In this document: positions 26,240 to 54,550 of the stretch, in pieces
Layout of the letters: each line of letters begins with the position of its first letter
Position numbering within the stretch: the first letter of the stretch is position 1
Assembly (NCBI GenBank): GCA_964291495.2
Contig: OZ219871.1
Coordinates: 128,001-192,000, forward strand
Direction of reading: 5' to 3'
From: Dehalococcoidia bacterium
GTDB lineage: Bacteria; Chloroflexota; Dehalococcoidia; UBA2979
Length of the DNA stretch: 64,000 nucleotides
Notes under the pieces: model-generated
Database searches by the model: none
What the model was told of the DNA's origin: nothing
Seen by the model: only the letters and a program-made list of their open reading frames with translations
Program-made: the position numbers and the translations under genes

Positions 26240-27421
26240 GTGAGCGTTCGGAACCGGGCCGCGATCGTAGGGGTGGGCGAGACGGAGTTCTCGCGCAACG
26301 CCGGGCGCTCCAACCTGCAACTCGCCCTCGAGGCGATCACCGCCGCGCTCGAGGACGCCGGGCTCACGACCGACGACGTCGACGCGATCGTGAAGATGCA
26401 CGCCAACACCGACCTCTTCGAGATCGACATCATGCGCAGCCTCGGCATCCAGAACCTGCGCTTCTTCAGCGAGATCCCGCACGGCGGCGGCGGCTCCGTC
26501 GGCACCGTCGTGCATGCGGCGGCGGCGATCGCCGCCGGGCAGGCCGACGTCGTGGTCTGCTTCCGCTCGATCCGCCGCTCGCTGATGCCGGCCAGCCGCT
26601 CGCGGGCCGGCCGCTACGTCCCGGACGGGATGCAGTACCGCATCCCCGTCGGCCTCGTCACCCCCGTGCAGTGGGTGGCGATGTTCGGGCGGCGCTACCT
26701 GCACGACTACGACCTCACCACCGAGGCGTTCGGCCTCTGCGCCGTGCAGATCCGCAACAACGGCGCGATCAACCCGCACGCGATGCAGTACGGGCGCACC
26801 GTCACCCTCGAGGACCACCACAACTCACGCTGGATCTCGGAGCCGCTGCGGCTGCTCGACTGCTGCCTCGAGACGGACGGGGGCAGCGCCGTCGTGGTCG
26901 TCTCGGCGGAGAAGGCGCGGGAGCTGGCGGCGAGCGGTCGCTCGAAGCGGCCGCCGGTCTACATCACCGGCGCCGCGCAGGGCACCGGCAGCCGCACCGA
27001 GTCGATGACCAGCTACCAGCGCGACAGCATGTCCGTGCTCGAGGAGGCCGAGGAGACGGCGCGCGAGGTCTATCGCGTGGCGGAGATGGAGCCGCGCGAC
27101 ATGGAGACGCTGCAGCTCTACGACCACTTCACGCCGATGGTGCTGATGTCGCTCGAGGCCTACGGCTTCGCCGCGCCGGGCGCGTCCCACGAGCTGTTCC
27201 GCGAGGGCCGCACCACCCTCGAGGGCGACATCCCGCTCAACACGCACGGCGGCCAGCTCGCCGACGGCTACCTGCACGGCTTCAGCATGATCACCGAGGC
27301 GGCGCGCCAGATCCGCGGCGACGCGGTGAACCAGCTGGAGCGCCGCCCGCGGACTGCCCTCGCGACCGCCGGCACCGGCGTCCCGACGAGCGCGCTGATC
27401 CTCTCCGCCGACGGCGCGTAG
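26240..27421 (+). CDS. Thiolase-superfamily (Ltp2/lipid-transfer-like) protein
   Basis: AAIVGVGETEF, LRLLDCC.ETDGG, QLYDHFT, NTHGGQL.DGYLHG. Confidence 0.88.
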   Translation: MSVRNRAAIVGVGETEFSRNAGRSNLQLALEAITAALEDAGLTTDDVDAIVKMHANTDLFEIDIMRSLGIQNLRFFSEIPHGGGGSVGTVVHAAAAIAAGQADVVVCFRSIRRSLMPASRSRAGRYVPDGMQYRIPVGLVTPVQWVAMFGRRYLHDYDLTTEAFGLCAVQIRNNGAINPHAMQYGRTVTLEDHHNSRWISEPLRLLDCCLETDGGSAVVVVSAEKARELAASGRSKRPPVYITGAAQGTGSRTESMTSYQRDSMSVLEEAEETAREVYRVAEMEPRDMETLQLYDHFTPMVLMSLEAYGFAAPGASHELFREGRTTLEGDIPLNTHGGQLADGYLHGFSMITEAARQIRGDAVNQLERRPRTALATAGTGVPTSALILSADGA

Positions 27422-38770: not shown

Positions 38771-39928
38771 CTACGGCGCCTCGCGGCCGAGCAGGACCAC
38801 GTCGGTGAAGAGCGCGCCCGCGCCGCCGTTGGTGCACATTGCGACCTCGGCGCCCTCGACCTGGCGGTTGCCCGCCTCGCCGCGCAGTTGCTTGGTGCCG
38901 GAGATCACTTTCTGCAGCAGCTGGGCCGTGCCGGGGTGGGCGAACGACATCGTGCCGCCGTCGGTGCAGACCGGGAACTCGCCGCCGACGCGGATGCGGC
39001 CGTCCATCACGAACGGGCCGCCCTCGCCGGGACCGCAGAAGCCATAGGTCTCGAACTGGCGGATGATCTCGAACGAGAACGGGTCGTAGAACTCGCACAC
39101 GTCGATGTCGGACGGCCCGAGGCCGCAGGCCTCGAACGCCTGCCTCGATGAGTACGACCCGACATCGCCCGTGACGTGCCAGAGCGGCCCGGCCACGTAG
39201 GCCTGCCCGCGCGAGTCGAGCCCGCCGCCGAGGATGTGGATCGGCGTGACGTCGAGGTCGCGCGCGCGCTCGGCGGTGGTGAGCACCATCGCGGCGCCGC
39301 CCTCGCTGGTCATCGCGCAGTCGAGCAGGTGGAACGGGTCGGCGATCATCGCCGAGTTGAGCACGTCGTCGGGCGTGATCACGCGTCCCGTGTAGACCGC
39401 GTCCGGGTTCATCCCGCCGTGCGTGCGGATCGCCGAGGCGACCTCGGCGAGGTGTTCGGGCTTCGTGTCGTACATGTGCATGTGGCGCTGGGCGATCAGC
39501 GCGAACTCGGCGGCGGTGTAGAGGCCGAAGCACTCGACGAACTCGTTCGATGGCCGCGTCCAGGGCGCGGTCGAAGCGCGCTCCGTGTAGGCGCCGGCCT
39601 GGCCGTTGCCGACGACGACGGTGTTGGCGTACCCGGCGGCGATGGCGGCGGCCGCCTGCAGTACCGCGGGGATGCCCATGTTCGCGACGCCCACCCACGT
39701 CGCCCGCCCGCCGAGCTGGTGCACCCACTGGCGCTGCCCGCCGCCACCGCCGGTGCCGGTGCTGACGTTGACGCCGTCGATGTCGGAGACCTGGAGGCCG
39801 GCGTCGGCGATCGCGCCCTTCACCGCGTCGAGGGTGATCGAGAAGGAGCTGTGCTCGTTGAGGTAACGCGACTGCACCGTGTTGTACGCGCCGACGATCA
39901 CGACGTCATGCAGATCCTTGCGCGGCAT
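38771..39928 (-). CDS. Thiolase-superfamily protein
   Basis: PFHLLDC...EGGAA, FYDPFS, TDGGTMSFAH, C-terminal CTNGGAGALF. Confidence 0.88.
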   Translation of the reverse strand: MPRKDLHDVVIVGAYNTVQSRYLNEHSSFSITLDAVKGAIADAGLQVSDIDGVNVSTGTGGGGGQRQWVHQLGGRATWVGVANMGIPAVLQAAAAIAAGYANTVVVGNGQAGAYTERASTAPWTRPSNEFVECFGLYTAAEFALIAQRHMHMYDTKPEHLAEVASAIRTHGGMNPDAVYTGRVITPDDVLNSAMIADPFHLLDCAMTSEGGAAMVLTTAERARDLDVTPIHILGGGLDSRGQAYVAGPLWHVTGDVGSYSSRQAFEACGLGPSDIDVCEFYDPFSFEIIRQFETYGFCGPGEGGPFVMDGRIRVGGEFPVCTDGGTMSFAHPGTAQLLQKVISGTKQLRGEAGNRQVEGAEVAMCTNGGAGALFTDVVLLGREAP

Positions 39929-40055
39929 AGCGGCTCCGTCATCAACTCGGCGGCGGGTTCGTGGCCGTCATGCTAGCCGTACCAGCGCGCAGCATCGAGC
40001 CGGGCGCGCTGGCGGCATGCACGCACCAGCGGGACAATGACCCGCGGGAGGCGAG

Positions 40056-43184: not shown

Positions 43185-44399
43185 CTACGCCGGGTGCGCC
43201 GCCTCGAGCATGTGGCCGTGGCGGCCGAGGTACTCGCGCACCGCAAGCAGCGCCGCGATGCCGTCGCCGGTCGCCGATCCGAGCTGCTTGGTCGAGCCGG
43301 CCCGCACGTCGCCGGCGACGTAGACGCCCTCGAGCGAGGTCGCGAAGCCCTCGCTGGCGACGAAGCCCCACTCGTCCAGTTCCACCGCCCCTCGCAGGAA
43401 CTCCGTGTTCGGCGTCAGCCCGATGAAGACGAAGACCCCTGCCGGGCTCCATGAGAGGTCCTCGCCGCTCTCGCTGTCGTGCGCGCGGACCTCCTGCAGG
43501 CGACCGCCCCGCCCGAGGAGCTCGACCACCTCGGTGCTCGTGTGGACCTCGATCGCCGGATGGCCGCGCACCTTGTCCCGCAGCAGCTGCGAGCCCTTGA
43601 GCTCCGGGTTGCGCTCCAGGATGCGCACGCGCTCGGCGAAGTTCGTGAGGAACAGCCCTTCCTCGAGGCCGGAGTTGCCGCCGCCGATCACCAGCAGTTC
43701 CTCCGAGCCGCGGTAGAACGGCCCGTCGCAGGTCGCGCAGAAGTGCACGCCCGCGCCGATCAGCCCGTCCTCGCCGGGAACCTCCAGGCGCCGGTAGGAG
43801 GAGCCCGTGGCGATCAAGGCCGCGTGGGCGCTGATCTCCTGCCCGGAGCTGAGCGTCAGCGAGACGTCGCCCTCCTGTTCGTCGGCGCGCAGTGCGGTGA
43901 CGGACACCGCCTCCAGCATCTCGACGCCGTAGCGCCGGGCCTGCCGCACGAAGCGGTCGGCCAGCTCGCCGCCCTCGATGCCGTCAGGGAAGCCCGGGTA
44001 GTTGTCGACGCGCTCGGTCACGCCGGCCTGCCCGCCGAGCGAGCCGCCGTCGACGATGATCGCGTCGATGCCCTCGCGCGCCGCGTAGATGCCGGCCGCG
44101 AGTCCGGCCGGACCGCCCCCGATGATCGCGAGGTCGTAGAAGGCGCGCTCGGCCTCGATGTTGAGGCCGAGCTTGCGCGCCAGCTCCTCGTTCGAGGGCT
44201 CCAGCAGGGAGCTGCCGTCCGGGAAGATGATCGTCGGGATCGTGCGGCCGCCGTTCTGCAGCTCCTCGACGAAGCGCAAGCCCTCGGCGTCCGTGTCGAT
44301 GTCGATCCAGTCGTACTCGACGCGGTGCTCGCCGAGGAACTTCTTGGAGCGCCGGCAATCCGGGCACCACGGGGCTCCGTAGACCTGTATCTCCGCCAT
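43185..44399 (-). CDS. Glutaredoxin-like domain fused to thioredoxin-disulfide reductase
   Basis: N-terminal WCPDC...TIPTI; then IIGGGPAG, NYPGF, HFCATCDG, IGGGNS, VAGDV. Confidence 0.9.
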   Translation of the reverse strand: MAEIQVYGAPWCPDCRRSKKFLGEHRVEYDWIDIDTDAEGLRFVEELQNGGRTIPTIIFPDGSSLLEPSNEELARKLGLNIEAERAFYDLAIIGGGPAGLAAGIYAAREGIDAIIVDGGSLGGQAGVTERVDNYPGFPDGIEGGELADRFVRQARRYGVEMLEAVSVTALRADEQEGDVSLTLSSGQEISAHAALIATGSSYRRLEVPGEDGLIGAGVHFCATCDGPFYRGSEELLVIGGGNSGLEEGLFLTNFAERVRILERNPELKGSQLLRDKVRGHPAIEVHTSTEVVELLGRGGRLQEVRAHDSESGEDLSWSPAGVFVFIGLTPNTEFLRGAVELDEWGFVASEGFATSLEGVYVAGDVRAGSTKQLGSATGDGIAALLAVREYLGRHGHMLEAAHPA

Positions 44400-44522
44400 G
44401 GCGCTCTCCTTTCGGACATCGTCCGCACCGGCCGCGAAGGCCTCGATAGAATGATCCCAGAAGCGCGGCGCTCGCGCCCCCGCATCGGGGAGCCTGTCGC
44501 AGCAGCGCGTGCGGGAGGTCGC

Positions 44523-45122
44523 ATGGCGCAGCCCCAGCGCAGCGAGGGAACAGCGCGGCTCCTCGCGCTCTGCGGCGCGCTGCTGGCGCTGCTGCTCCTC
44601 GCCTGCACCACCCCGACCGAGGAGCCGGCCGAGGCGACCGCGACGCCGTCGGACGCCGGCTCCGGCGTCACGACCGCCACGCCGCCACGGACCGCCTCCC
44701 CAACCCCCGACGAGCTGACCGCCGAGGAGGCGGTGGCGGCGTGGGGCCGCCAGGTCTGCGCCGCAGCCAGCGCCTTCACCGTCGACTTCCTTCGCAGCGG
44801 CGACTCGCAGGATCCGAGCGAGCTGGGTCTGGAGGCGCGCAAGGAGCGCGCTGCGGCGATGTTCCCCGTGCAGTACGACGCCGTGCGCAGGGCCGCGAAC
44901 ATCCTCGAGGCAATCGATCCGCCGCAGCGCACATCCGAGCTGCACCGCCTGCTGCTGACGACCTACCGCGATCTTGAGGCGGCGCTGCGGGAGCAGGAAG
45001 AGATCATCGCCGAGGCGACCACCGGCGAGGAGATCGCCGACAGCAACCTTCCGGTAGACGAGCTGATCAGCCTCGCCTTCCGCCAGGCCTCGCTGCTCGC
45101 CGACGGCGGCTACTGCGAGTAG
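44523..45122 (+). CDS. Hypothetical lipoprotein
   Basis: Hydrophobic signal ending LLAC, Pro/Thr linker, helical body; GGAGG RBS. Confidence 0.7.
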   Translation: MAQPQRSEGTARLLALCGALLALLLLACTTPTEEPAEATATPSDAGSGVTTATPPRTASPTPDELTAEEAVAAWGRQVCAAASAFTVDFLRSGDSQDPSELGLEARKERAAAMFPVQYDAVRRAANILEAIDPPQRTSELHRLLLTTYRDLEAALREQEEIIAEATTGEEIADSNLPVDELISLAFRQASLLADGGYCE

Positions 45123-45187
45123 CGCGCGCCTGACCGCCAGCACCCGGCCCGCAACGCATTGCATCGGCAGGGCGACGCGTGTACCAT

Positions 45188-45216
45188 ACTTTGCATTACA
45201 AACTAGTTTGCACAGC
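45188..45216. promoter_or_regulatory. Probable operator for the downstream winged-helix regulator
   Basis: ACTTTGCATTACAAACT-AGTTTGCA with a perfect CAAACTAGTTTG palindrome in an AT-rich patch. Confidence 0.5.
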
Positions 45217-45239
45217 AGTAGCGAGGTGGGGGCACCAAC

Positions 45240-45872
45240 ATGGAGCGAACGGGCGACGAGGCACGACTCAGCCCCGAGGACGGCTGGCGCGCGATCCAGA
45301 AGACGGTGGACGAGACGCACAGTGCGATGTACGTCGCCGGCACGGCGACGATCCTGCTGCTCTGGGGCGTGATCGTCTCGCTCGGCTACCTCGCGGAGTA
45401 CGCGCTCGACACCGCAGCCACCGACTTCCGCGACGACAACCCCTGGATCAGCGCGCCGCTCTGGTTCGGCCTCGTGGGGGCGGGGATGGCGGGAAGCGCG
45501 ATCGTCGGGAGCCGTGCGGGAAGGGTGCACGCCGCCGGTGATGCGATGCGCAGCGCCGGCATCCGCGTCTTCCTCTTCTGGCTCGCGGTGGCGCTTGCCG
45601 CGTTCCTCGTCCCGGCGGCAGCAGGCCTGTGGACCGCCGACGAAGACCCGGCGAACATCGTGCGCGCCGCGATCGGCATCGTGGCGCTCGGTCACGTGCT
45701 GTTCGGCATCATGCACCGCCCGCTGATCGCGGCGGTGGGCGTGGGCATCGCCACCGCGTTCTACGTCCCGAGCTACCTCGCGGGCGACGCCGCGCTGGCG
45801 GTGGCGGCAGCGTCCACGCTCCTCGTCGTCGCGGGCGCCTACGCGTGGATCCGCCGCAGCGGGGTGCTGTGA
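45240..45872 (+). CDS. Hypothetical membrane protein
   Basis: About 6 TM segments; stop overlaps the start of the regulator gene. Confidence 0.75.
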   Translation: MERTGDEARLSPEDGWRAIQKTVDETHSAMYVAGTATILLLWGVIVSLGYLAEYALDTAATDFRDDNPWISAPLWFGLVGAGMAGSAIVGSRAGRVHAAGDAMRSAGIRVFLFWLAVALAAFLVPAAAGLWTADEDPANIVRAAIGIVALGHVLFGIMHRPLIAAVGVGIATAFYVPSYLAGDAALAVAAASTLLVVAGAYAWIRRSGVL

Positions 45873-48375: not shown

Positions 48376-48429
48376 CCCCGCAAGCCACATCCACCTCGCA
48401 GGGCTCGCGCGCCGTGGGCGGGCTGCGCC

Positions 48430-48640
48430 CGCCTCCCCCTCACCCCCACCCTCTCCCGCCAGGGGAGAGGGAGCCGGAGGCGGAGGCGTCGAGGGCGAGT
48501 CCGGTCCCCTCTCCCCGAGGGAGAGGGTCAGGGTGAGGGAGGGTCCGACCTCTGGAGTTTCGTTGCGCCATCGGGGCTTTCGGAGGTGAGCGGGAGTCCT
48601 CCCCTCACCCCCGCCCTCTCCCCAGGGAGAGGGTGCCGGA
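48430..48640. repeat. Palindromic repeat cluster of the same family as 27460 and 40500
   Basis: ccggtcccctctccccgagggagaggg...gagtcctcccctcacccccgccctctccccagggagaggg. Confidence 0.8.
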
Positions 48641-48658
48641 GGCAGGCTTCGAGGGCGA

Positions 48659-49780
48659 TCAGCCGCGGAGATCCTCGACGCTGCCGACGGGGCGGCCGAA
48701 GCGATCGGCGATCACTGTCGTGACCGGCTGCGTCCGCTGCCCGAAGGTCGGCAGCCACGAGGAGTGCTTGCCGGGCCCACCGGCGACGAACAAGTGCAGC
48801 CGCTCCGGCTCGTTGACGATCGGCAGCAGTGCGTCCGGCGGGAACGGCTCAATCCCCGTCTCCGGCTCGATGCGCACGTTGACGGACTCGAGGAACTCGG
48901 GCGAGAGCTTCGCCGCGGGGTAACGGGCGTGCTCGAAGACGTACTGCTGGACGCCCTCGCGGGTCCAGCCCTCGTCGGCGATCGTCGCGGCGTGCTCGGG
49001 GCCGAGCGCTAGCAGCGGCTCGCCGCGGCTGAGGATATTGTTGCTTCCCGCCTGCCCGAGGGCGCCGGCGACGGTCTGGAGGACGCCGAGCGCGGTGTTG
49101 CTGCCGTGCTCCTGGATGTTGTGCGGGCCCTCGCTGGCCGCGACGGTGACCGCGCTGTCTTCCGGCTCGAAGCCGCGCGTGGTGTGGAACGGCGGCCAGG
49201 GGCTGGCCTCCTCGTTCTCGGCGAGGCAGAGCGCGAACTTTGCCGGCGTGCCCTGCGTGGCGCGGTCGCCGTGGCCGGGCGAGGCGCCGGCGATGTTGAG
49301 CAGCAGCAGCCGGATCGCGCGCCCGATCGTCGCGTTCGCGCGGAAGCCCGGGCCGTAGCAGCCCGGCCCGCCGTGCACCCCCAGCTCACGGCCGATCGGC
49401 CCGTTCACGAGCACCAGCACCGCGCAGGGGTGCGTGGTCGCGTTGATGCCGCTGAGGTTGAACTGCGGCTGCGCGATGCCCTGCACCGCCGCGAGCAGCA
49501 CGGGCAGCGCGCGCGGCTCGCAGCCCGCGAGGACGGCGTTGATCGCGACCGCCTCGACGGTCGCCACGCCACGCCGCGGCGGCAGCACGCCCAGCACTTC
49601 GCGCCGGTCGCGGTCGGTGTAGGCGAGCATCGCCTCGACGCGCTCCTCGGTGGGCGGGATGACGGGCAGGCCGTCCGACCAGCCGCGTTCGGCGAACGCG
49701 TCGTGCAGCTCGCCGGGATCGGCGGGCAGATCGACCAGCGCCGCGGCGTCGCCGAAGCGGGCGGAGCCGCCCGACGTCAT
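48659..49780 (-). CDS. Conserved hypothetical protein coupled to the UGSC protein
   Basis: GWSDGLPVIPPTEERV, AINAVLAGC, NATTH, RANATIGRA, ENEEASPW; ATGA overlap with the UGSC gene. Confidence 0.85.
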   Translation of the reverse strand: MTSGGSARFGDAAALVDLPADPGELHDAFAERGWSDGLPVIPPTEERVEAMLAYTDRDRREVLGVLPPRRGVATVEAVAINAVLAGCEPRALPVLLAAVQGIAQPQFNLSGINATTHPCAVLVLVNGPIGRELGVHGGPGCYGPGFRANATIGRAIRLLLLNIAGASPGHGDRATQGTPAKFALCLAENEEASPWPPFHTTRGFEPEDSAVTVAASEGPHNIQEHGSNTALGVLQTVAGALGQAGSNNILSRGEPLLALGPEHAATIADEGWTREGVQQYVFEHARYPAAKLSPEFLESVNVRIEPETGIEPFPPDALLPIVNEPERLHLFVAGGPGKHSSWLPTFGQRTQPVTTVIADRFGRPVGSVEDLRG

Positions 49781-50334
49781 CGGTCGCCGCCGGCGATCGG
49801 CACGGGCTCGGCCGCGAGCGACGCCAGCAGGTCCGGGATGGAGTCGCGGGCCTTCTCGGCGACGGCGTCTTCCCGGATGCCGCCGATCGGGTGCGGGACC
49901 ACGATGTAGCGCAGGTCCGGCATGCCGCGCTGCTCGGCCTCGAGCTTGAACAGGCTGACGAATGCCTCGGTGGTGATGTTGACGGTGGGGATGCCCTGCC
50001 GCTCGAAGAGGATGGAGGCGTGGACACTCCACGCCGTGCAGGAGCCTCAGTCGCTCGATCCGACCAGGGCGAAGTCGGCTCCCTCCACGAGCTTGCGCTC
50101 GTTGCTCTTCGTCGGCGGGCCGGCGCTCGGCTTGCCGATCGTCGTCAGCTCGCCGAGCTCGAAGTGCTCGCGCAAGCCCTCGATCATCTGCCGCATCAGC
50201 AGCCCGGCGTTGGCCTTGCGGTTCTCGACGATGCCGGGCCGCATGCCGTCGAGCGAGGCGGGCAGCGGCGCGAGCGGGTACTGCTCGACGGGCGCGTGGC
50301 CGGTGGGGTCGTAGACCCGGATGGTGTCGCTCAT
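49777..50334 (-). CDS. UGSC-family selenoprotein (Sec at UGA 50049-50047, residue 96 of 185)
   Basis: Read-through gives ...ALVGSSD-U-GSCTAWSVHASILFERQGIPTV...GMPDLRYIVVPHPIGG; SECIS-like hairpin follows the UGA. Confidence 0.88.
50017..50035 (-). other. Bacterial SECIS-like hairpin of the UGSC gene
   Basis: 11 nt after UGA: GGCGUGGA-GUG-UCCACGCC, a perfect 8-bp stem with a G-starting loop. Confidence 0.7.
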
Positions 50335-50363
50335 GGCGGTCCTCCGTAGGCGCGCGTTCGGGA

Positions 50364-50615
50364 TCAGACGCGCGAGTAGATCAGCTCCTTGAGTTCCTCG
50401 ATCTCCGGGAAGCGCCCGCTCTGCATCTTGCTGAAGACCAGTTCGCCGTTCACGGACCACTCGAAGCAGCCGCCGTCGCCGGTGCGCATCTCCAGCTTTC
50501 GGACATCGTCCTGGATGTCGTACATGATCTCGCCGATCATCCACTGCGCGCGGGCGAGGTAGCTGCAGGGCACGCAGTACTCGACCGTGATCTCGACTCC
50601 CTGCTCATCGCTCAT
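50364..50615 (-). CDS. Rdx (SelW/SelT/SelH) family protein, Cys form
   Basis: ITVEYCVPCSY..RA, GDGGCFE..VNGELVFSK...GRFPE. Confidence 0.9.
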   Translation of the reverse strand: MSDEQGVEITVEYCVPCSYLARAQWMIGEIMYDIQDDVRKLEMRTGDGGCFEWSVNGELVFSKMQSGRFPEIEELKELIYSRV

Positions 50616-50842
50616 TGGGCCGCCTCCCTCGGTTCCCGATTCTAGCGCCGCCACCCCGCCGGATCGCACCCGCGCCAGCCGATTCCAGCGTCGGCCCGGT
50701 TTTTTGGCCGTTATGTAGCGTTGGAGTGAAGTCAAGGGTTCGCTCGCCTGCTCGCGGACTGCTAGATTCGTTGAAGACGCGCGTCACGATGCCCATACGT
50801 CGTGTTCGCGAGCCTGCCACACCCGAGCGGGAGGAGTTGCCG

Positions 50843-52009
50843 ATGAGCCTGCGCGGAGCGGCCTCAATCATCGGAATCGGCGAATTGAAGCCGGAACGGC
50901 GCAAGCCCGGACGCACCGGCCCCGGCCTGGCGCAGGAGGCGGCTCGCCTCTGCATCGAGGACTCCGGCCTGCTCAAGGAGCAGGTGGACGGGCTGATCAC
51001 GGAGATCCCGTTCCTCAATACCTGTGAGTTCGCCGAGACACTCGGCATCCAGCCGACCTGGGCGCACGGAGTGAACATGATGGGCTCGTCCGGCCCCACG
51101 TCGGTCGCCATCGCGGCGATGGCGGTCAGAGCCGGGCTCGCCAACAACATCCTCTGCCTGGTCACCTCCGGCGAGGTCGGGGGCTTCGGAGGCGGCGGTG
51201 GCGGCGCCATCGGCGGCCAGTTCCCGCAGTTCGCCGGCCCGTTCGGGCCGGGCCCCGGCGCGAACTTCTGGTACGCGCTGGTCGCCAACCGCTACAAGCA
51301 CGAGTTCGGACTCACCGACGAGGAGCGCGTCGCGATCGCGGTGCAGCAGCGCGAGAACGCGCAGGCCAACCCGGATGCGGCTTTCTACGGCACCCCGGCG
51401 ACCACCGACGACGTGCTGAACTCGCGCATGGTCGCGAACCCGCTGACCCTGCTTGAGTGCGTGATGCCCACGCTCGGCGCGGCGGCCCTGATGGTGAGCC
51501 GCCCCGAGGCCGTCGAGTCCTCCCCGCACGACCCGGTCTACATCCTCGGCGTCGGTCACTCGATGGACCGCGGTGTGCCGGGCATCACCTACGTGGACCG
51601 CATGACGAAGTCCCCGGTCGAGGTCTCCGCCCGCGCGGCCTACAAGATGGCCGGCGTCGGTCCGCAGGACATGGACATGGCCTCGCTCTACGACTGCTAC
51701 ACGATCACGGTGATCATCGAGTTCGAGGACGCCGGCTTCGCCCCGAAGGGCGAGGGCGGCACCTACTTCGCGAACGAGGACGTCACCTACAAGAGCAAGG
51801 GCATTGCCGTGAACACGCACGGCGGCCAGCTCTCCTTCGGCCAGCCCGGCACCGCCGGCGGCATGTCGCACGCCACCGAGGCGGTGCGCCAGCTGATGGG
51901 CCGCGGCGAGGCGCGCCAGAAGGAGCAGATGGACTACTGCTTCGTCAACGGCTGAGGCGGCGGACTGAGCGTGATGTGCTCACTGGTCCTCGGGAAGGAC
52001 CAAGGCTAG
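50843..52009 (+). CDS. Thiolase-superfamily protein with an in-frame UGA (51953-51955), candidate selenoprotein
   Basis: IIGIGE, PLTLLEC, YDCYT, NTHGGQLSFG, EAVRQL.G; read-through adds U-GGGLSVMCSLVLGKDQG, completing the last beta-strand. Confidence 0.8.
51962..51989 (+). other. Candidate SECIS hairpin of the thiolase gene
   Basis: GGAC-UGAGCG-UGAUG-UGCUCA-CUG-GUCC; apical loop starts 16 nt after the UGA with G at position 2. Confidence 0.55.
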
Positions 52010-52085
52010 CCACCTCGAACCGAAGCACCGGAGCCCGCTGCCTCGCGGCAGTGGGCGACGGGAGCAGCAGAGGGGGATGGGAACG

Positions 52086-52508
52086 ATGGCCGACGAAGGC
52101 CCAAAGCGGCCCGTACCGCAGGCGAACGCACTGACCGAGCCCTTCTGGGAGGCGACGAGGGAGGAGCGGCTCACGGTCCAGCGCTGCAACGCCTGCAGCC
52201 GGCTGTTCTGGTACCCGCGCGAGTTCTGCCCGCTCCCGCACTGCTTCTCCAACGACTACGAGTGGGTGGAGGTGAGCGGCAAGGGACGGCTGCACACCTT
52301 CACGATCATCGCCCAGGCCCAGGACGCCTGGTTCCAGGAGCGCGTGCCCTACATCTTCGGCGTGATCCAGCTCGACGAGGGCCTGCGCATGATGGGCAAC
52401 GTCGACATCCCGGTCGAAGAGGCCGTCTGCGACCTGCCCGTCGAGGTCTACTTCGAGAAGATCGACGACGAGTGGACGCTGCCGCAGTGGAGGCCGATCG
52501 CCTCGTAG
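52086..52508 (+). CDS. Zn-ribbon/OB-fold (DUF35) acyl-CoA-binding thiolase partner
   Basis: PFWEA, QRCNAC...YPREFCP..HC, SGKGRLHTFT, QLDEG.RM. Confidence 0.9.
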   Translation: MADEGPKRPVPQANALTEPFWEATREERLTVQRCNACSRLFWYPREFCPLPHCFSNDYEWVEVSGKGRLHTFTIIAQAQDAWFQERVPYIFGVIQLDEGLRMMGNVDIPVEEAVCDLPVEVYFEKIDDEWTLPQWRPIAS

Positions 52509-52644
52509 CCCCGGCGACAGCGCGGCACAGCCAGCGGGCGCGCTTCGGGCGCGCCCGCTTCGCGTCCGGCGCCCGCCGCGCCAGCGAGCGCCGTGCGCGG
52601 TACCCTGACCAACGCGCAAGAGCGACTGCGGACGGAGCGGCAGC

Positions 52645-53688
52645 GTGGCGATCACCCTCGGCGTCCTCGACCAGTCGCCTATCCGCCAGGGCGGCACCCC
52701 CGCCGAGGCGATCGAGGAGACGCTGCAGCTCGCCCAGGCGACCGAGCGGCTCGGCTACACGCGCTACTGGCTGGCGGAGCACCACAACAGCAGCGGACTC
52801 GCCTGCGCCGCCCCGGAGATCCTGATCCCGCGCGTCGCCTCGGTGACCTCGCGCATCCGCGTCGGCTCCGGCGGCGTGATGCTGCCGCACTACTCGTCAC
52901 TCAAGGTGGCCGAGCAGTTTCGCATGCTCGAGACGATGTTCCCGGGCCGCATCGACCTCGGGCTGGGCCGCGCGCCGGGGACGGACGGCCGCACCTCGGC
53001 GGCGCTCGCGCAGGGGCCGGGCATGCGCAACGTCGAGCACTACCCGCGCCAGGTCGCCGACCTGATGCGGCTGCTCCGCGACGAGCTGCCCGAGGGCCAC
53101 CCGCTGACCGGCATCCACGCCCAGCCGCGAGGCGAGAGCGTGCCGACCCCGTGGCTGCTGGGCTCCTCGCTGGACAGCGCCAGCACGGCGGCGGAGCAGG
53201 GGCTGCCCTTCTCCTTCGCGCACTTCATCCACGCCGAGTGGGCCGGCGAGGCGATCACGCTCTACCGGCGCCTCTTCCGCCCCTCGCAGTGGCTCGACGA
53301 GCCGCTCGTCAATGCCGGCGTCTCCGCGCTCTGCGCCGAGACGGACGAGGAGGCCGAGCGGCTGGCGATGAGCCGCTGGCTGTGGCGCCTCCGCAACCGC
53401 CAGGGCCTGCGCATCGGCGTGCCACCCCCCGACGACCCCGAGGCCGAGCGCCTCTCCCAGCCGGAACGCGACTTCATCGAGTACCAGAAGCAGACCAGCC
53501 TCGTCGGCGGACCGCAGCGCCTGCGCGATCGCCTCGAGGCGCTCGCCCTGGAGCTCGAGGTCGACGAGTTCGTGGTCGTGACGATCACCTACAGCTACAA
53601 GGACCGGCTGCGCTCCTACGAGCTGCTGGCCGAGGAGTTCGGACTGAGCGGAACGAACGGCGCGGGAAAGGACGATGGCGATGCGTGA
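52645..53688 (+). CDS. LLM-class flavin-dependent oxidoreductase
   Basis: LDQSP, YWLAEHH, RVGSGGVMLPHYS.LKVAE, GRIDLGLGRAPG. Confidence 0.9.
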   Translation: MAITLGVLDQSPIRQGGTPAEAIEETLQLAQATERLGYTRYWLAEHHNSSGLACAAPEILIPRVASVTSRIRVGSGGVMLPHYSSLKVAEQFRMLETMFPGRIDLGLGRAPGTDGRTSAALAQGPGMRNVEHYPRQVADLMRLLRDELPEGHPLTGIHAQPRGESVPTPWLLGSSLDSASTAAEQGLPFSFAHFIHAEWAGEAITLYRRLFRPSQWLDEPLVNAGVSALCAETDEEAERLAMSRWLWRLRNRQGLRIGVPPPDDPEAERLSQPERDFIEYQKQTSLVGGPQRLRDRLEALALELEVDEFVVVTITYSYKDRLRSYELLAEEFGLSGTNGAGKDDGDA

Positions 53689-54550
53689 CCTCGGAGGCCG
53701 CGTGGCGGTGGTGACGGGTGGCGGCAGCGGGATCGGGCGCGGCATCTGCCTCGCCGCGGCGGAGCAGGGCATGCACGTCGTCGTTACGGACATCGAGGGC
53801 GACGCCGCCGAGGAGACGGCGGCGCTCGTGCGGGACCACGGCGTGCAGAGCCTCGGCGTCGCCGCCGACGTCTCCAACCCCGCCTCGGTCGAGGCGCTGG
53901 CCGACGCGGCCTACGGCGAGTTCGGGGCCGTCGACGTGCTGTTCAACAACGCCGGCGTGCTCGTCTTCGGGCCGACCGCGGAGATGCCGGCGAGCGACCT
54001 CGACTGGATGCTCGCCGTGAACCTCTACGGCGTGCTCAACGGCATCCAGGTGTTCGTGCCGCGCATGCGGGAGCAGGAGCCGGACGAGGACGGCACGCGC
54101 GCCCAGATCGTCAACACCTCCTCGATGTCCGGGCTCGTGGCGGGGCGCGGCGGCGGCAACCTCGGCGGCTACGTCGCCTCCAAGTTCGCCGTCGTCGGCA
54201 TGACCGAATCGCTGCGGCTGGAGCTGGCGCCCGAGGGAATCGACGTGACGCTGTTCTGCCCCGGCGCGACGCACACGCGCATCGGCGAGGCGCAGCGCAA
54301 CCGCCAGGAGGCGTATGGCCCGGCTCGCGAGATTCCCGAGCCGATCATCGCGCAGCGCGCGGCCCCGCGCGATCCGAGCCGATCGCCGGACGCGCGGCGC
54401 GACCCGCTGGTCGTCGGCCGCGCGGTCCTCGAGGGCGTGCGCGAGCGTCGTGCCTACATCCTGACCCACACGGAGACGCGACCCGTCGTCGCGAGGCGCT
54501 TCGAGCACATCGCCGAGGGCTACGACCAGGCCGAGCGCTCCGCCGGGTAG
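53681..54550 (+). CDS. SDR oxidoreductase
   Basis: TGGGSGIG, NNAGV, NTSS, YVASK. Confidence 0.9.
   Translation: MRDLGGRVAVVTGGGSGIGRGICLAAAEQGMHVVVTDIEGDAAEETAALVRDHGVQSLGVAADVSNPASVEALADAAYGEFGAVDVLFNNAGVLVFGPTAEMPASDLDWMLAVNLYGVLNGIQVFVPRMREQEPDEDGTRAQIVNTSSMSGLVAGRGGGNLGGYVASKFAVVGMTESLRLELAPEGIDVTLFCPGATHTRIGEAQRNRQEAYGPAREIPEPIIAQRAAPRDPSRSPDARRDPLVVGRAVLEGVRERRAYILTHTETRPVVARRFEHIAEGYDQAERSAG

Follow-up and report, generated by a model that had tools for sequence, protein, structure and literature searches.

A candidate selenocysteine-containing thiolase-fold enzyme in Dehalococcoidia

A stretch of 64,000 nucleotides from the genome of a Dehalococcoidia bacterium (GenBank contig OZ219871.1, positions 128,001 to 192,000), hereafter called the window, harbors a thiolase-fold gene whose reading frame is interrupted by an in-frame TGA shortly before its end. 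Comparison with homologous genes indicates that this TGA (51953-51955) almost certainly encodes selenocysteine (Sec, U) in a catalytic loop. The protein resembles a group of thiolase-fold aldolases that lack the thiolase nucleophile and are partnered by DUF35 proteins. Taken as a whole, it is quite likely that the UGA is decoded as Sec in a DUF35-partnered enzyme of this type and that Sec371 is probably a catalytic residue. An earlier sequence-only reading of the window had proposed a Sec-containing thiolase-fold enzyme at this place, and its individual claims are taken up below where the results bear on them. The window corresponds to G000:C5:128001-192000 in a genome of 3.08 Mb and 8 contigs. 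Coordinates refer to the window unless a contig is named, the features are collected in Table 1, and G and L numbers designate genomes and homologous loci, respectively.

The read-through product

The gene lies in a window with a G+C content of 72%. It begins with an ATG at 50843, just 5' of which the ribosome-binding site GGGAGGAG is located, and the frame meets the TGA before the last loop and strand of the fold, as had been noticed in the sequence-only reading. Translation of the TGA as Sec adds 17 further in-frame codons up to a TAG and yields a product of 388 amino acids with the predicted C-terminus ...DYCFVNG-U-GGGLSVMCSLVLGKDQG (beyond the UGA, ...FVNG-U-GGGLSVMCSLVLGK), the same ending, YCFVNG-U-GGGLSVMCSLVLGKDQG, as previously proposed. 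Only this read-through product covers positions 12-144 of the 144 positions of the Pfam model Thiolase_C_1 (2.1e-40) and extends to position 382 of 384 in the NCBIfam model PRK06158; read-through thus completes Thiolase_C_1 and the last beta-strand. All NCBIfam thiolase models remain below their curated cut-offs, with PRK06158 as the best (254.1 bits vs 421) and TIGR01930 at 21.3 vs 240.55, and no selenoprotein-specific NCBIfam model matches the read-through protein. The codons GGA, TCA and CAA of the tail, described earlier as atypical for this genome, are in fact rare in 11 window genes, where they account for 37/411 Gly (9.0%), 8/223 Ser (3.6%) and 3/103 Gln codons (2.9%).

By its pattern of substitutions, the tail beyond the UGA is evolving as coding sequence. 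Among 38 unique sequences, the pairwise ratio of nonsynonymous to synonymous differences (pN/pS) was computed for 13 codons on either side of the UGA and amounts to 0.444 downstream and 0.486 upstream; frame +1 of the tail is interrupted by stops in 31 of the 38. The end of the tail coincides with the end of full-length homologs that have no TGA. An AlphaFold2 model computed from a 23-sequence alignment (mean predicted local distance difference test score, pLDDT, 83.5; predicted template modelling score, pTM, 0.88) pairs residues 365-372 and 377-384 as the last beta-hairpin, with block-mean pLDDT values of 86-92 for residues 371-388. Termination at Gly370 would remove the last strand of the core sheet from this model, because strand 377-384 lies in the tail.

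Two more thiolase-fold paralogs are found in the window, both of which had been recognized by their tails: an Ltp2-like one (AGTGVP) with its tail at 27362-27406 (+), and a minus-strand gene at 38771-39967 (-) that ends with CTNGGAGALFTDVVLLG and has its tail at 38786-38836 (-).

Conservation of the UGA codon and the Sec machinery

The assumption that the host decodes Sec was borne out by the presence of selA (523.6 bits), selB (301.7 bits), selD (368.3 bits) and a tRNA-Sec with the anticodon tca, found by aragorn, in the genome. The selD gene (C5:1608812-1609747 of the window genome, L010) has one in-frame TGA of its own, so that selenophosphate synthetase, too, is probably a selenoprotein.

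When 61 related genomes were searched in six frames, many homologs with exactly one in-frame TGA were uncovered. Among the first 30 loci, the TGA occupies the same column (VNG-U-GG) in 22, at identities down to 44%. In a set of 77 homologous genes from Dehalococcoidia, assembled from these 30 first loci, 20 further regions, five paralogs of the window's own genome and 23 loci of a class-wide search, U is present at column 371 in 65. Homologs without the TGA usually have Asn, otherwise Ser or Thr; neither Trp nor a TGG, which had been named as the finding that would speak against Sec, was found at this column. Of the two outcomes anticipated for homologs, a conserved TGA was thus observed and Cys was not. 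Cys at column 371 is absent from the 77 genes and from the 120 nearest clusters (90% identity) in a collection of 5.8 billion proteins, and occurs in 2 of 150 distant representatives (e.g. P0023, 38% identity). Of the 120 clusters, 47 end exactly at residue 370, and the others show Asn (69), Ser (2) or Lys (1) at column 371. Clusters that end at 370 are named, where they are named at all, 'thiolase family protein' or 'acetyl-CoA acetyltransferase'.

In the class-wide search, which scored four candidates per genome, 99 of 401 Dehalococcoidia genomes gave a match at <=1e-70. Among the matches listed (150, with 48 more beyond), a hand count assigned one TGA to 68, two to 36, none to 45 and a TAG to one, so that 104 of the 150 carry one or two TGA codons. 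One family of ~2-Mb genomes contains at least four matches per genome at E <= 1e-70, most of the listed ones with one or two TGA codons. Of the 45 genomes with a listed TGA form, 43 gave a selA match at a threshold of <=1e-60, compared to 300 of 401 overall, a tally that includes one genome flagged as unpublished (G271). The two TGA-form genomes without a selA match are G052 (71% complete) and G124. Four genomes in which selA was not found at the same threshold (G020, G035, G051 and G406) have only non-TGA forms.

Within the window genome, Sec is found in three copies (that of the window, C5:687274 and C5:1035229) and Asn in three others. Six genomes of the genus (L017/L045, L020/L044, L021/L046, L022/L043, L019/L047 and L023/L048) carry a second Sec copy that is 72-74% identical, lies ~0.7 kb from the ortholog and is accompanied by its own DUF35 gene; the search of the 61 related genomes did not show such a tandem copy in the window's genome. 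A divergent Sec clade (L029 and L080-L095, family f6) reads VNT-U-RG and has a three-residue deletion at the nucleophile loop. The f6 genomes (~2 Mb) hold four or more copies of the family each, including two-Sec forms.

Hairpins downstream of the UGA

Two hairpins can be folded in the tail (Table 1). The first, a candidate selenocysteine insertion sequence (SECIS) element, is the UGAGCG-UGAUG-UGCUCA hairpin of the sequence-only reading; it was located 10 nt after the UGA, has a G in its apical loop, and can be extended by pairing of GGAC (51962-65) with GUCC (51986-89), as had been suggested. A gap-free alignment of 23 distinct sequences (A1) revealed a family-wide helix of 6 bp between columns 22-27 and 33-38, which begins 12 nt after the UGA, encloses the loop AUGNN and has 83% of its cells paired. 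Three of its six pairs are changed on both sides (CG 14/UA 2; UA 10/AU 6; GC 11/CG 7/AU 1). Scored jointly, the two helices have a covariation of 0.212 vs 0.116 in shuffles, and none of 500 shuffles attains the observed value; in controls with slid partners pairing falls to 34-51%. The originally proposed register (columns 20-25 with 31-36) was rejected as the family-wide structure, as only 65% of cells are paired and covariation is weak; the better register lies two columns (2 nt) downstream, with a loop of likewise 5 nt. In the clade of the window gene, the original register is used. Hairpin 2 is kept in one related clade via paired synonymous changes (L036 vs L037).

Sec and non-Sec genes differ in the tail at both RNA and protein level. 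The mean folding energy of the hairpin 1 region is -9.3 kcal/mol in 29 unique Sec genes vs -6.1 kcal/mol in 11 non-Sec genes, and that of the hairpin 2 region is -10.7 vs -5.7 kcal/mol in the same groups, whose sequences are not independent. Met378 (51974-51976), the AUG codon of which lies in the hairpin loop, is present in 65/65 Sec forms and 0/12 non-Sec forms; the latter have Gln (8), Ala (2), Glu (1) or Thr (1) at this position. This invariance may reflect a constraint on the SECIS loop or a side chain placed next to Sec across the beta-hairpin. Cys366 (51938-51940) is found in 53 of 65 Sec forms vs 2 of 12 non-Sec forms.

Protein family and active site

The closest solved structure is that of CtSal, a bile-acid (steroid) side-chain aldolase from Comamonas testosteroni bound to a DUF35 domain (9MYR; PMC12329534), which was the best match of phmmer against the PDB (9myr, 5.9e-76) and of Foldseek (template modelling score 0.89). 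It is followed by 4U4E, a structural-genomics 'thiolase', and by 6OK1, the Ltp2-ChsH2(DUF35) aldolase. In the active site of CtSal, neither Tyr302 nor Cys304 of the YDCY motif can be dispensed with, and activation of the Cys has been attributed tentatively to Gln347 and Gln352; the backbone NH of Gly391 and Gln161 make up the oxyanion hole, and a Gly takes the position of the thiolase nucleophile Cys (PMC12329534). A HMMER alignment (chain numbering minus 24) maps this catalytic set to Tyr283, Cys285, Gln329, Gln334, Gly373 and Gly81 of the window protein.

These residues are widely kept in the 77 genes: Tyr283 and Gly373 in all, Gln329 and Gln334 in 74 each, and position 285 as Cys in 66, U in 5, Ser in 5 and Pro in 1. 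The nucleophile column contains Gly in 61 genes, a gap in 16 and Cys in none, compared to CGSG in the nucleophile loop of the genome's own classical thiolases. MMGSSG without the nucleophile Cys and GQP, with Gln334 instead of the His of GHP, had both been pointed out before and could be confirmed in the translation.

In common with CtSal, the protein thus has the YDCY dyad, a Gly instead of the nucleophile Cys, the two Gln residues and the Gly of the oxyanion hole, and a DUF35 gene lies next to its own as that of a candidate partner. The two proteins differ at three active-site positions, which are Thr389, Gln396 and Gln161 in CtSal and Sec371, Met378 and Ala140 here; at position 140, 66 of the 77 genes have Ala and 5 have Gln. 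They further differ in that the DUF35 partner of CtSal is described as a domain of the hydratase Shy (PMC12329534), whereas here it is encoded by a separate small gene. Classical and SCP2 thiolases have the same fold, with Sec at the C of their CxG motif and YDCY in the place of the HDCF loop (PMC6790690; PMC7682436, as far as the motifs are laid out there), but the window protein lacks the nucleophile Cys and the His of GHP and, as mentioned above, stays below the cut-offs of the NCBIfam models. The TcLtp2-ChsH2(DUF35) aldolase (6OK1; phmmer 2.2e-42) is likewise a thiolase-fold aldolase with a DUF35 partner, but the features typical of Ltp2, YDHF and Tyr344 according to the CtSal paper (PMC12329534), are absent and replaced by YDCY and a Gln. 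TbSLP, the SCP2-thiolase-like protein of Trypanosoma brucei (5AB4-7), shares the lack of the nucleophile Cys and has a YDCF motif, but is far more distant (4.2e-19) and has no Sec; an aldolase function has been proposed for it in the CtSal study (PMC12329534). Because the CtSal residues are kept, the nucleophile Cys is absent and a DUF35 gene is adjacent, the comparison supports placing the protein in a nucleophile-less, DUF35-partnered, aldolase-like (Sal/SLP) branch of the thiolase superfamily and not among the thiolases proper.

Position 371 and its counterparts

In the alignment with CtSal, U371-G372-G373 corresponds to T389-G390-G391, which places Sec two residues before the oxyanion-hole Gly and agrees with the earlier statement that the UGA falls in the final catalytic loop of the thiolase fold. 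The CxG loop of classical thiolases, situated between C-beta-4 and C-beta-5, is described as the source of an acid/base Cys and of an oxyanion-hole NH (PMC6790690), and in SCP2-type thiolases the acid/base Cys is reported to have moved to the HDCF loop (PMC7682436). The three classical thiolases of the genome read ...YGLVTL-C-IGGGQG, a gap-free match to ...YCFVNG-U-GGGLSV at the same distance from the C-terminus. We infer that U371 takes the position of the CxG acid/base Cys of classical thiolases. Since it precedes the oxyanion-hole Gly by two residues, Sec371 should lie at the alpha-carbon or thioester of the acyl-coenzyme A (acyl-CoA), close to Cys285, and in the Sec forms both of the former acid/base sites near the alpha-carbon would be occupied by reactive residues.

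A second TGA replaces the catalytic Cys285 (YD-U-YT) in 5 of the 77 genes (L032, L050, L078, L079 and L088). These two-Sec genes belong to four taxonomic families and several branches of the tree, and each has a small hairpin ~15 nt past the second TGA. Judged from the alignment, position 285 is a textbook Cys/Sec pair at a residue that was proven essential in CtSal.

When rows more than 93% identical are dropped, 41 of the 77 remain (29 Sec and 12 non-Sec). On a maximum-likelihood tree of these 41, the Sec label needs at least three changes, and two Asn paralogs of the window genome are nested in Sec clades with supports of 100/99 and 100/100. A change from Sec to Asn takes three base changes; that from Sec to Cys takes one and is never seen within the tree. 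One nested Asn371 paralog (C5:712051-713175 of the window genome, vs the Sec copy C5:687274-688404) keeps Cys366 and a hairpin 2 of -14.4 kcal/mol, and looks like a recent replacement of Sec by Asn with remnants of the RNA structure.

Possible roles of Sec371

Decoding of the UGA at 51953-55 as Sec by SelA, SelB, SelD and tRNA-Sec, helped by the hairpin 10 nt downstream, is well supported, and the 388-residue product would work with the DUF35 protein encoded next door as its candidate partner. In the proposed mechanism, Sec371 would be a catalytic selenolate that attacks a carbon centre of the acyl-CoA at C-alpha or C-beta (a beta-keto or beta-substituted carbon); alternatively, it could cycle via a Se-S bond with Cys285, or a Se-Se bond in the two-Sec paralogs. 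The nucleophilic version would amount to a thiolase rebuilt with a Sec nucleophile and no activating His, in which Cys285 would protonate the leaving enolate like the Cys of HDCF, and the redox version would be a reductive cleavage at the alpha-carbon. An acid-base aldolase scaffold might thereby have become a covalent or redox enzyme that cleaves C-C or C-X bonds of acyl-CoA substrates, and the Asn371 paralogs of the same genome would be ordinary Sal-type aldolases.

We consider the chances about even that Sec371 is such a catalytic selenolate, be it as nucleophile or in a Se-S or Se-Se pair with residue 285. A catalytic role together with residue 285 is suggested because Cys never occupies column 371 in the 77 genes, because Sec and Asn paralogs coexist in one genome, which points to different functions or reactions, and because Cys285 is itself replaced by Sec in some copies. 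In selenoenzymes, Sec is known to serve as a nucleophile, as a redox centre or in binding a metal, but is not known to act as a plain acid/base. Glycine reductase provides a precedent for a selenolate that attacks an alpha-carbon and is resolved by a Cys. The suggestion that Sec could be catalytic stands with regard to its position in the catalytic loop, but Sec is not the sole candidate, given that Cys285 of YDC is kept. A more speculative proposal, which we hold only tentatively, is that these proteins are the first selenoenzymes of CoA-thioester carbon chemistry, in which an aldolase scaffold would have acquired a selenolate at the former CxG site; as part of a Se-S or Se-Se pair with residue 285, it would cleave C-C or C-X bonds at the alpha or beta carbon in a covalent or reductive manner. 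One version would be a reductive cleavage like that of glycine reductase, with recycling by thioredoxin-type partners.

Several observations weigh against a catalytic selenolate or against details of its support. The sequences are related, so that the counts of covariation and co-occurrence overstate the independent support. In the wider family (150 representatives at 50% identity plus the query, in which the two Cys are counted besides the query's stand-in), column 371 is variable (N 27, T 15, A 11, S 10, L 10, Q 9 ... of 151). The tree indicates that Sec was replaced by Asn at least twice within Sec clades; taken together, this variability and these replacements make a non-catalytic or tuning role conceivable. 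A comparison with the three classical thiolases by hhalign gave a probability of 97.3%, but the aligned region did not extend beyond residue 355 and missed the CxG loop, so the equivalence of U371 with the CxG Cys is based on motif spacing, secondary structure and the mapping of CtSal Gly391. The presumed closeness of residues 285 and 371 derives from homology. With regard to the RNA, the 54-nt tail of the window folds no better than dinucleotide shuffles (z -0.04; 92 of 200 fold as well). A scan of 49500-52600 with Rfam at E <= 5 retrieved three weak chance matches and no SECIS family. Hairpin stability was accordingly dropped as evidence, and the support for a SECIS is comparative: the hairpin forms and covaries in the family, as had been anticipated, but its stability in the window does not exceed that of shuffled sequences. 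Finally, the UGSC, Rdx, luciferase-like and short-chain dehydrogenase genes described below adjoin the homolog only within the genus, which lessens the weight of the gene neighbourhood as an argument for redox function.

The strongest competing explanation, though an improbable one, accepts Sec371 but confines it to general acid/base catalysis or polar tuning in a Sal-type retro-aldol cleavage of beta-hydroxyacyl-CoA, with no covalent or redox step. It fits with the conservation of the CtSal aldolase residues (Tyr283 and Gly373 in 77/77, Gln329 and Gln334 in 74/77 each), with Asn, a non-nucleophile, as both the ancestral and the replacement residue at 371, and with the CxG Cys of classical thiolases, which is presented as an acid/base and not as a nucleophile (PMC6790690). 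It leaves unexplained why Cys never occurs at 371 despite being one base away, why two-Sec paralogs exist, and why Sec and Asn paralogs with apparently different functions coexist in one genome. A selenol, moreover, is mostly deprotonated at neutral pH, and a purely acid/base use of Sec is, to our knowledge, without precedent among selenoenzymes.

Far less probable is a true stop at the UGA, with a protein of 370 residues and a downstream conservation that reflects an RNA element, for instance in coupling or attenuation of the DUF35 gene. Two hairpins do lie between the UGA and the start of that gene, and public gene calls end at the UGA in 47 of the 120 nearest clusters. Yet the tail has a pN/pS of 0.44, the same as the upstream coding sequence, it is in frame and ends where the non-TGA homologs end, and it provides the last strand of the core sheet in the AlphaFold2 model; in addition, selA is found in 43 of 45 genomes with TGA forms, and Met378 is present in 65/65 Sec forms.

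We give slightly less credence still to a UGA read as a standard residue (Trp, Cys or Gly) by near-cognate suppression or local recoding. A translated tail is compatible with it, but the genome has the full Sec machinery and other selenoprotein genes, including UGSC in the window and SelD, and TGA also serves as a normal stop, as at the end of the UGSC gene. The TGC or TGG variants expected in this case are missing from the 77, 120 and 150 sequences, bar the two distant Cys, and the second TGA replaces a catalytic Cys. A pseudogene or assembly error, for which nothing but the stop codon speaks, can be dismissed, as dozens of independently assembled genomes show the same TGA and a single genome can have it in several paralogs, with no further disruptions and with purifying selection on both sides.

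Gene neighbourhood

The DUF35 gene downstream of the Sec gene (Table 1) adjoins the homolog in 28 of the 30 loci L013-L042 and in all eight among L073-L079 and L088. With the window's query, no DUF35 gene was found within 1.5 kb in 16 loci of the divergent Sec clade (NT-U-RG). Further downstream, genes of the luciferase-like monooxygenase and short-chain dehydrogenase families follow. The second UGA-containing gene that had been reported just upstream turned out to encode a divergently oriented UGSC-family selenoprotein, which shows a weak match to the Sec region of the glycine reductase protein GrdB (5e-05) and the gene of which terminates at an ordinary TGA. The Rdx (SelW-like) gene, likewise divergent and upstream, encodes a Cys form.

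Among 22 ORFs scanned over ~41.5-63.5 kb of the window, no steroid genes were seen. An ORF of 843 residues at 43185-45716 (-) comprises in its C-terminal 400 residues a glutaredoxin and a thioredoxin-reductase-like flavoprotein (pyridine-nucleotide-disulphide-oxidoreductase); its N-terminal half has no Pfam match and may result from an over-long ORF call. Like UGSC and Rdx, it offers redox context of a local kind only. No Pfam-matching ORF was found among those tried in the region 48400-49780 (~1.4 kb downstream of the UGSC gene), where a TGA-interrupted gene could hide. One of the weak Rfam matches, CRISPR-DR20 at 52481-52520 (-), where the DUF35 gene ends (24.5 bits, E 0.048, below gathering threshold), is most likely due to chance.

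Table 1. Features at and around the candidate Sec gene, in window coordinates.
Feature	Position	Strand	Basis
Candidate Sec-containing thiolase-fold (Sal/SLP-like) gene, 388 aa including U371	50843..52009	+	stop TAG 52007-52009
Nucleophile-loop motif MMGSSG, Gly81 at the thiolase nucleophile-Cys position (CxS loop)	51074..51091	+	translation
YDCY motif, Tyr283 and Cys285 corresponding to CtSal Tyr302/Cys304	51689..51700	+	HMMER alignment; PMC12329534
In-frame UGA, almost certainly read as Sec (U371), at the C of the thiolase CxG loop	51953..51955	+	TGA in the same column in 65/77 homologous genes
Hairpin 1, candidate SECIS, stem UGAGCG/UGCUCA, loop UGAUG	51966..51982	+	fold; begins 10 nt after the UGA
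Hairpin 2, within the coding tail, stem UGGUCCU/AGGACCA, loop CGGGA	51984..52002	+	fold
DUF35 gene, candidate partner (zinc ribbon and OB fold)	52077..52508	+	Pfam zf-ChsH2 1.2e-12, OB_ChsH2_C 1.8e-18
Luciferase-like monooxygenase family gene, downstream	52645..53688	+	Pfam Bac_luciferase 3.3e-35
Short-chain dehydrogenase gene	53675..54550	+	Pfam adh_short 4.7e-49
UGSC-family selenoprotein gene, U96, TGA 50047-50049, divergent	49780..50334	-	Pfam UGSC 8.1e-45; NF041046 122.7 bits vs cut-off 125
Rdx (SelW-like) family gene, Cys form, divergent, upstream	50364..50618	-	Pfam Rdx 9.6e-20

Relation to known selenoproteins and implications

The gene shares with known bacterial selenoproteins such as UGSC and GrdA/GrdB a UGA followed by a hairpin in a Sec-using genome and a Sec near a partner Cys. 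It differs from them in that its non-Sec counterpart is Asn and not Cys, and in that none of the families listed in a 2026 review table of prokaryotic selenoproteins (PMC13188914) has a thiolase fold. UGSC is present in this table, whereas a term search of the same source found no occurrence of thiolase, aldolase, SCP2, lipid-transfer, acetyltransferase, PF22691, PF02803, PF00108 or COG0183. In the literature, no paper was found on a thiolase-fold or DUF35-linked selenoprotein, nor any that combines selenoproteins and SAR202. This is in accordance with the initial remark that thiolases are not an established bacterial selenoprotein family. BSepDB comprises 111 families, and its main text counts Dehalococcoidia among the most selenoprotein-rich genomes (PMC13326102). 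The gene would thus represent a new selenoprotein family within a known fold, which might already be included among these 111 families, the list of which lies outside the main text (PMC13326102).

Discovery methods of the deep-Sep type are described as being built on Cys/Sec pairs (PMC12013277), so that a family with an Asn counterpart would tend to be missed by them. The alignment of Sec with Asn exposes this blind spot, and the finding adds a selenoprotein family to the thiolase fold and to acyl-CoA C-C chemistry, where none was found described. Given that the sequences stop at residue 370 in 47 of the 120 nearest clusters, annotations and metabolic models of Dehalococcoidia would be wrong at this gene. 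The occurrence of up to four or more copies per genome, some of them with two Sec residues, implies a real selenium demand that is tied to a catabolic reaction. If the tentative proposal of a Se-S or Se-Se pair in CoA-thioester chemistry proved true, these enzymes would make up a large, multi-copy part of the Dehalococcoidia selenoproteome that is invisible to searches for Cys/Sec pairs. The series of Sec/Asn and Cys/Sec paralogs provides a natural experiment from which the contribution of selenium to an already well-understood catalytic centre could be judged.

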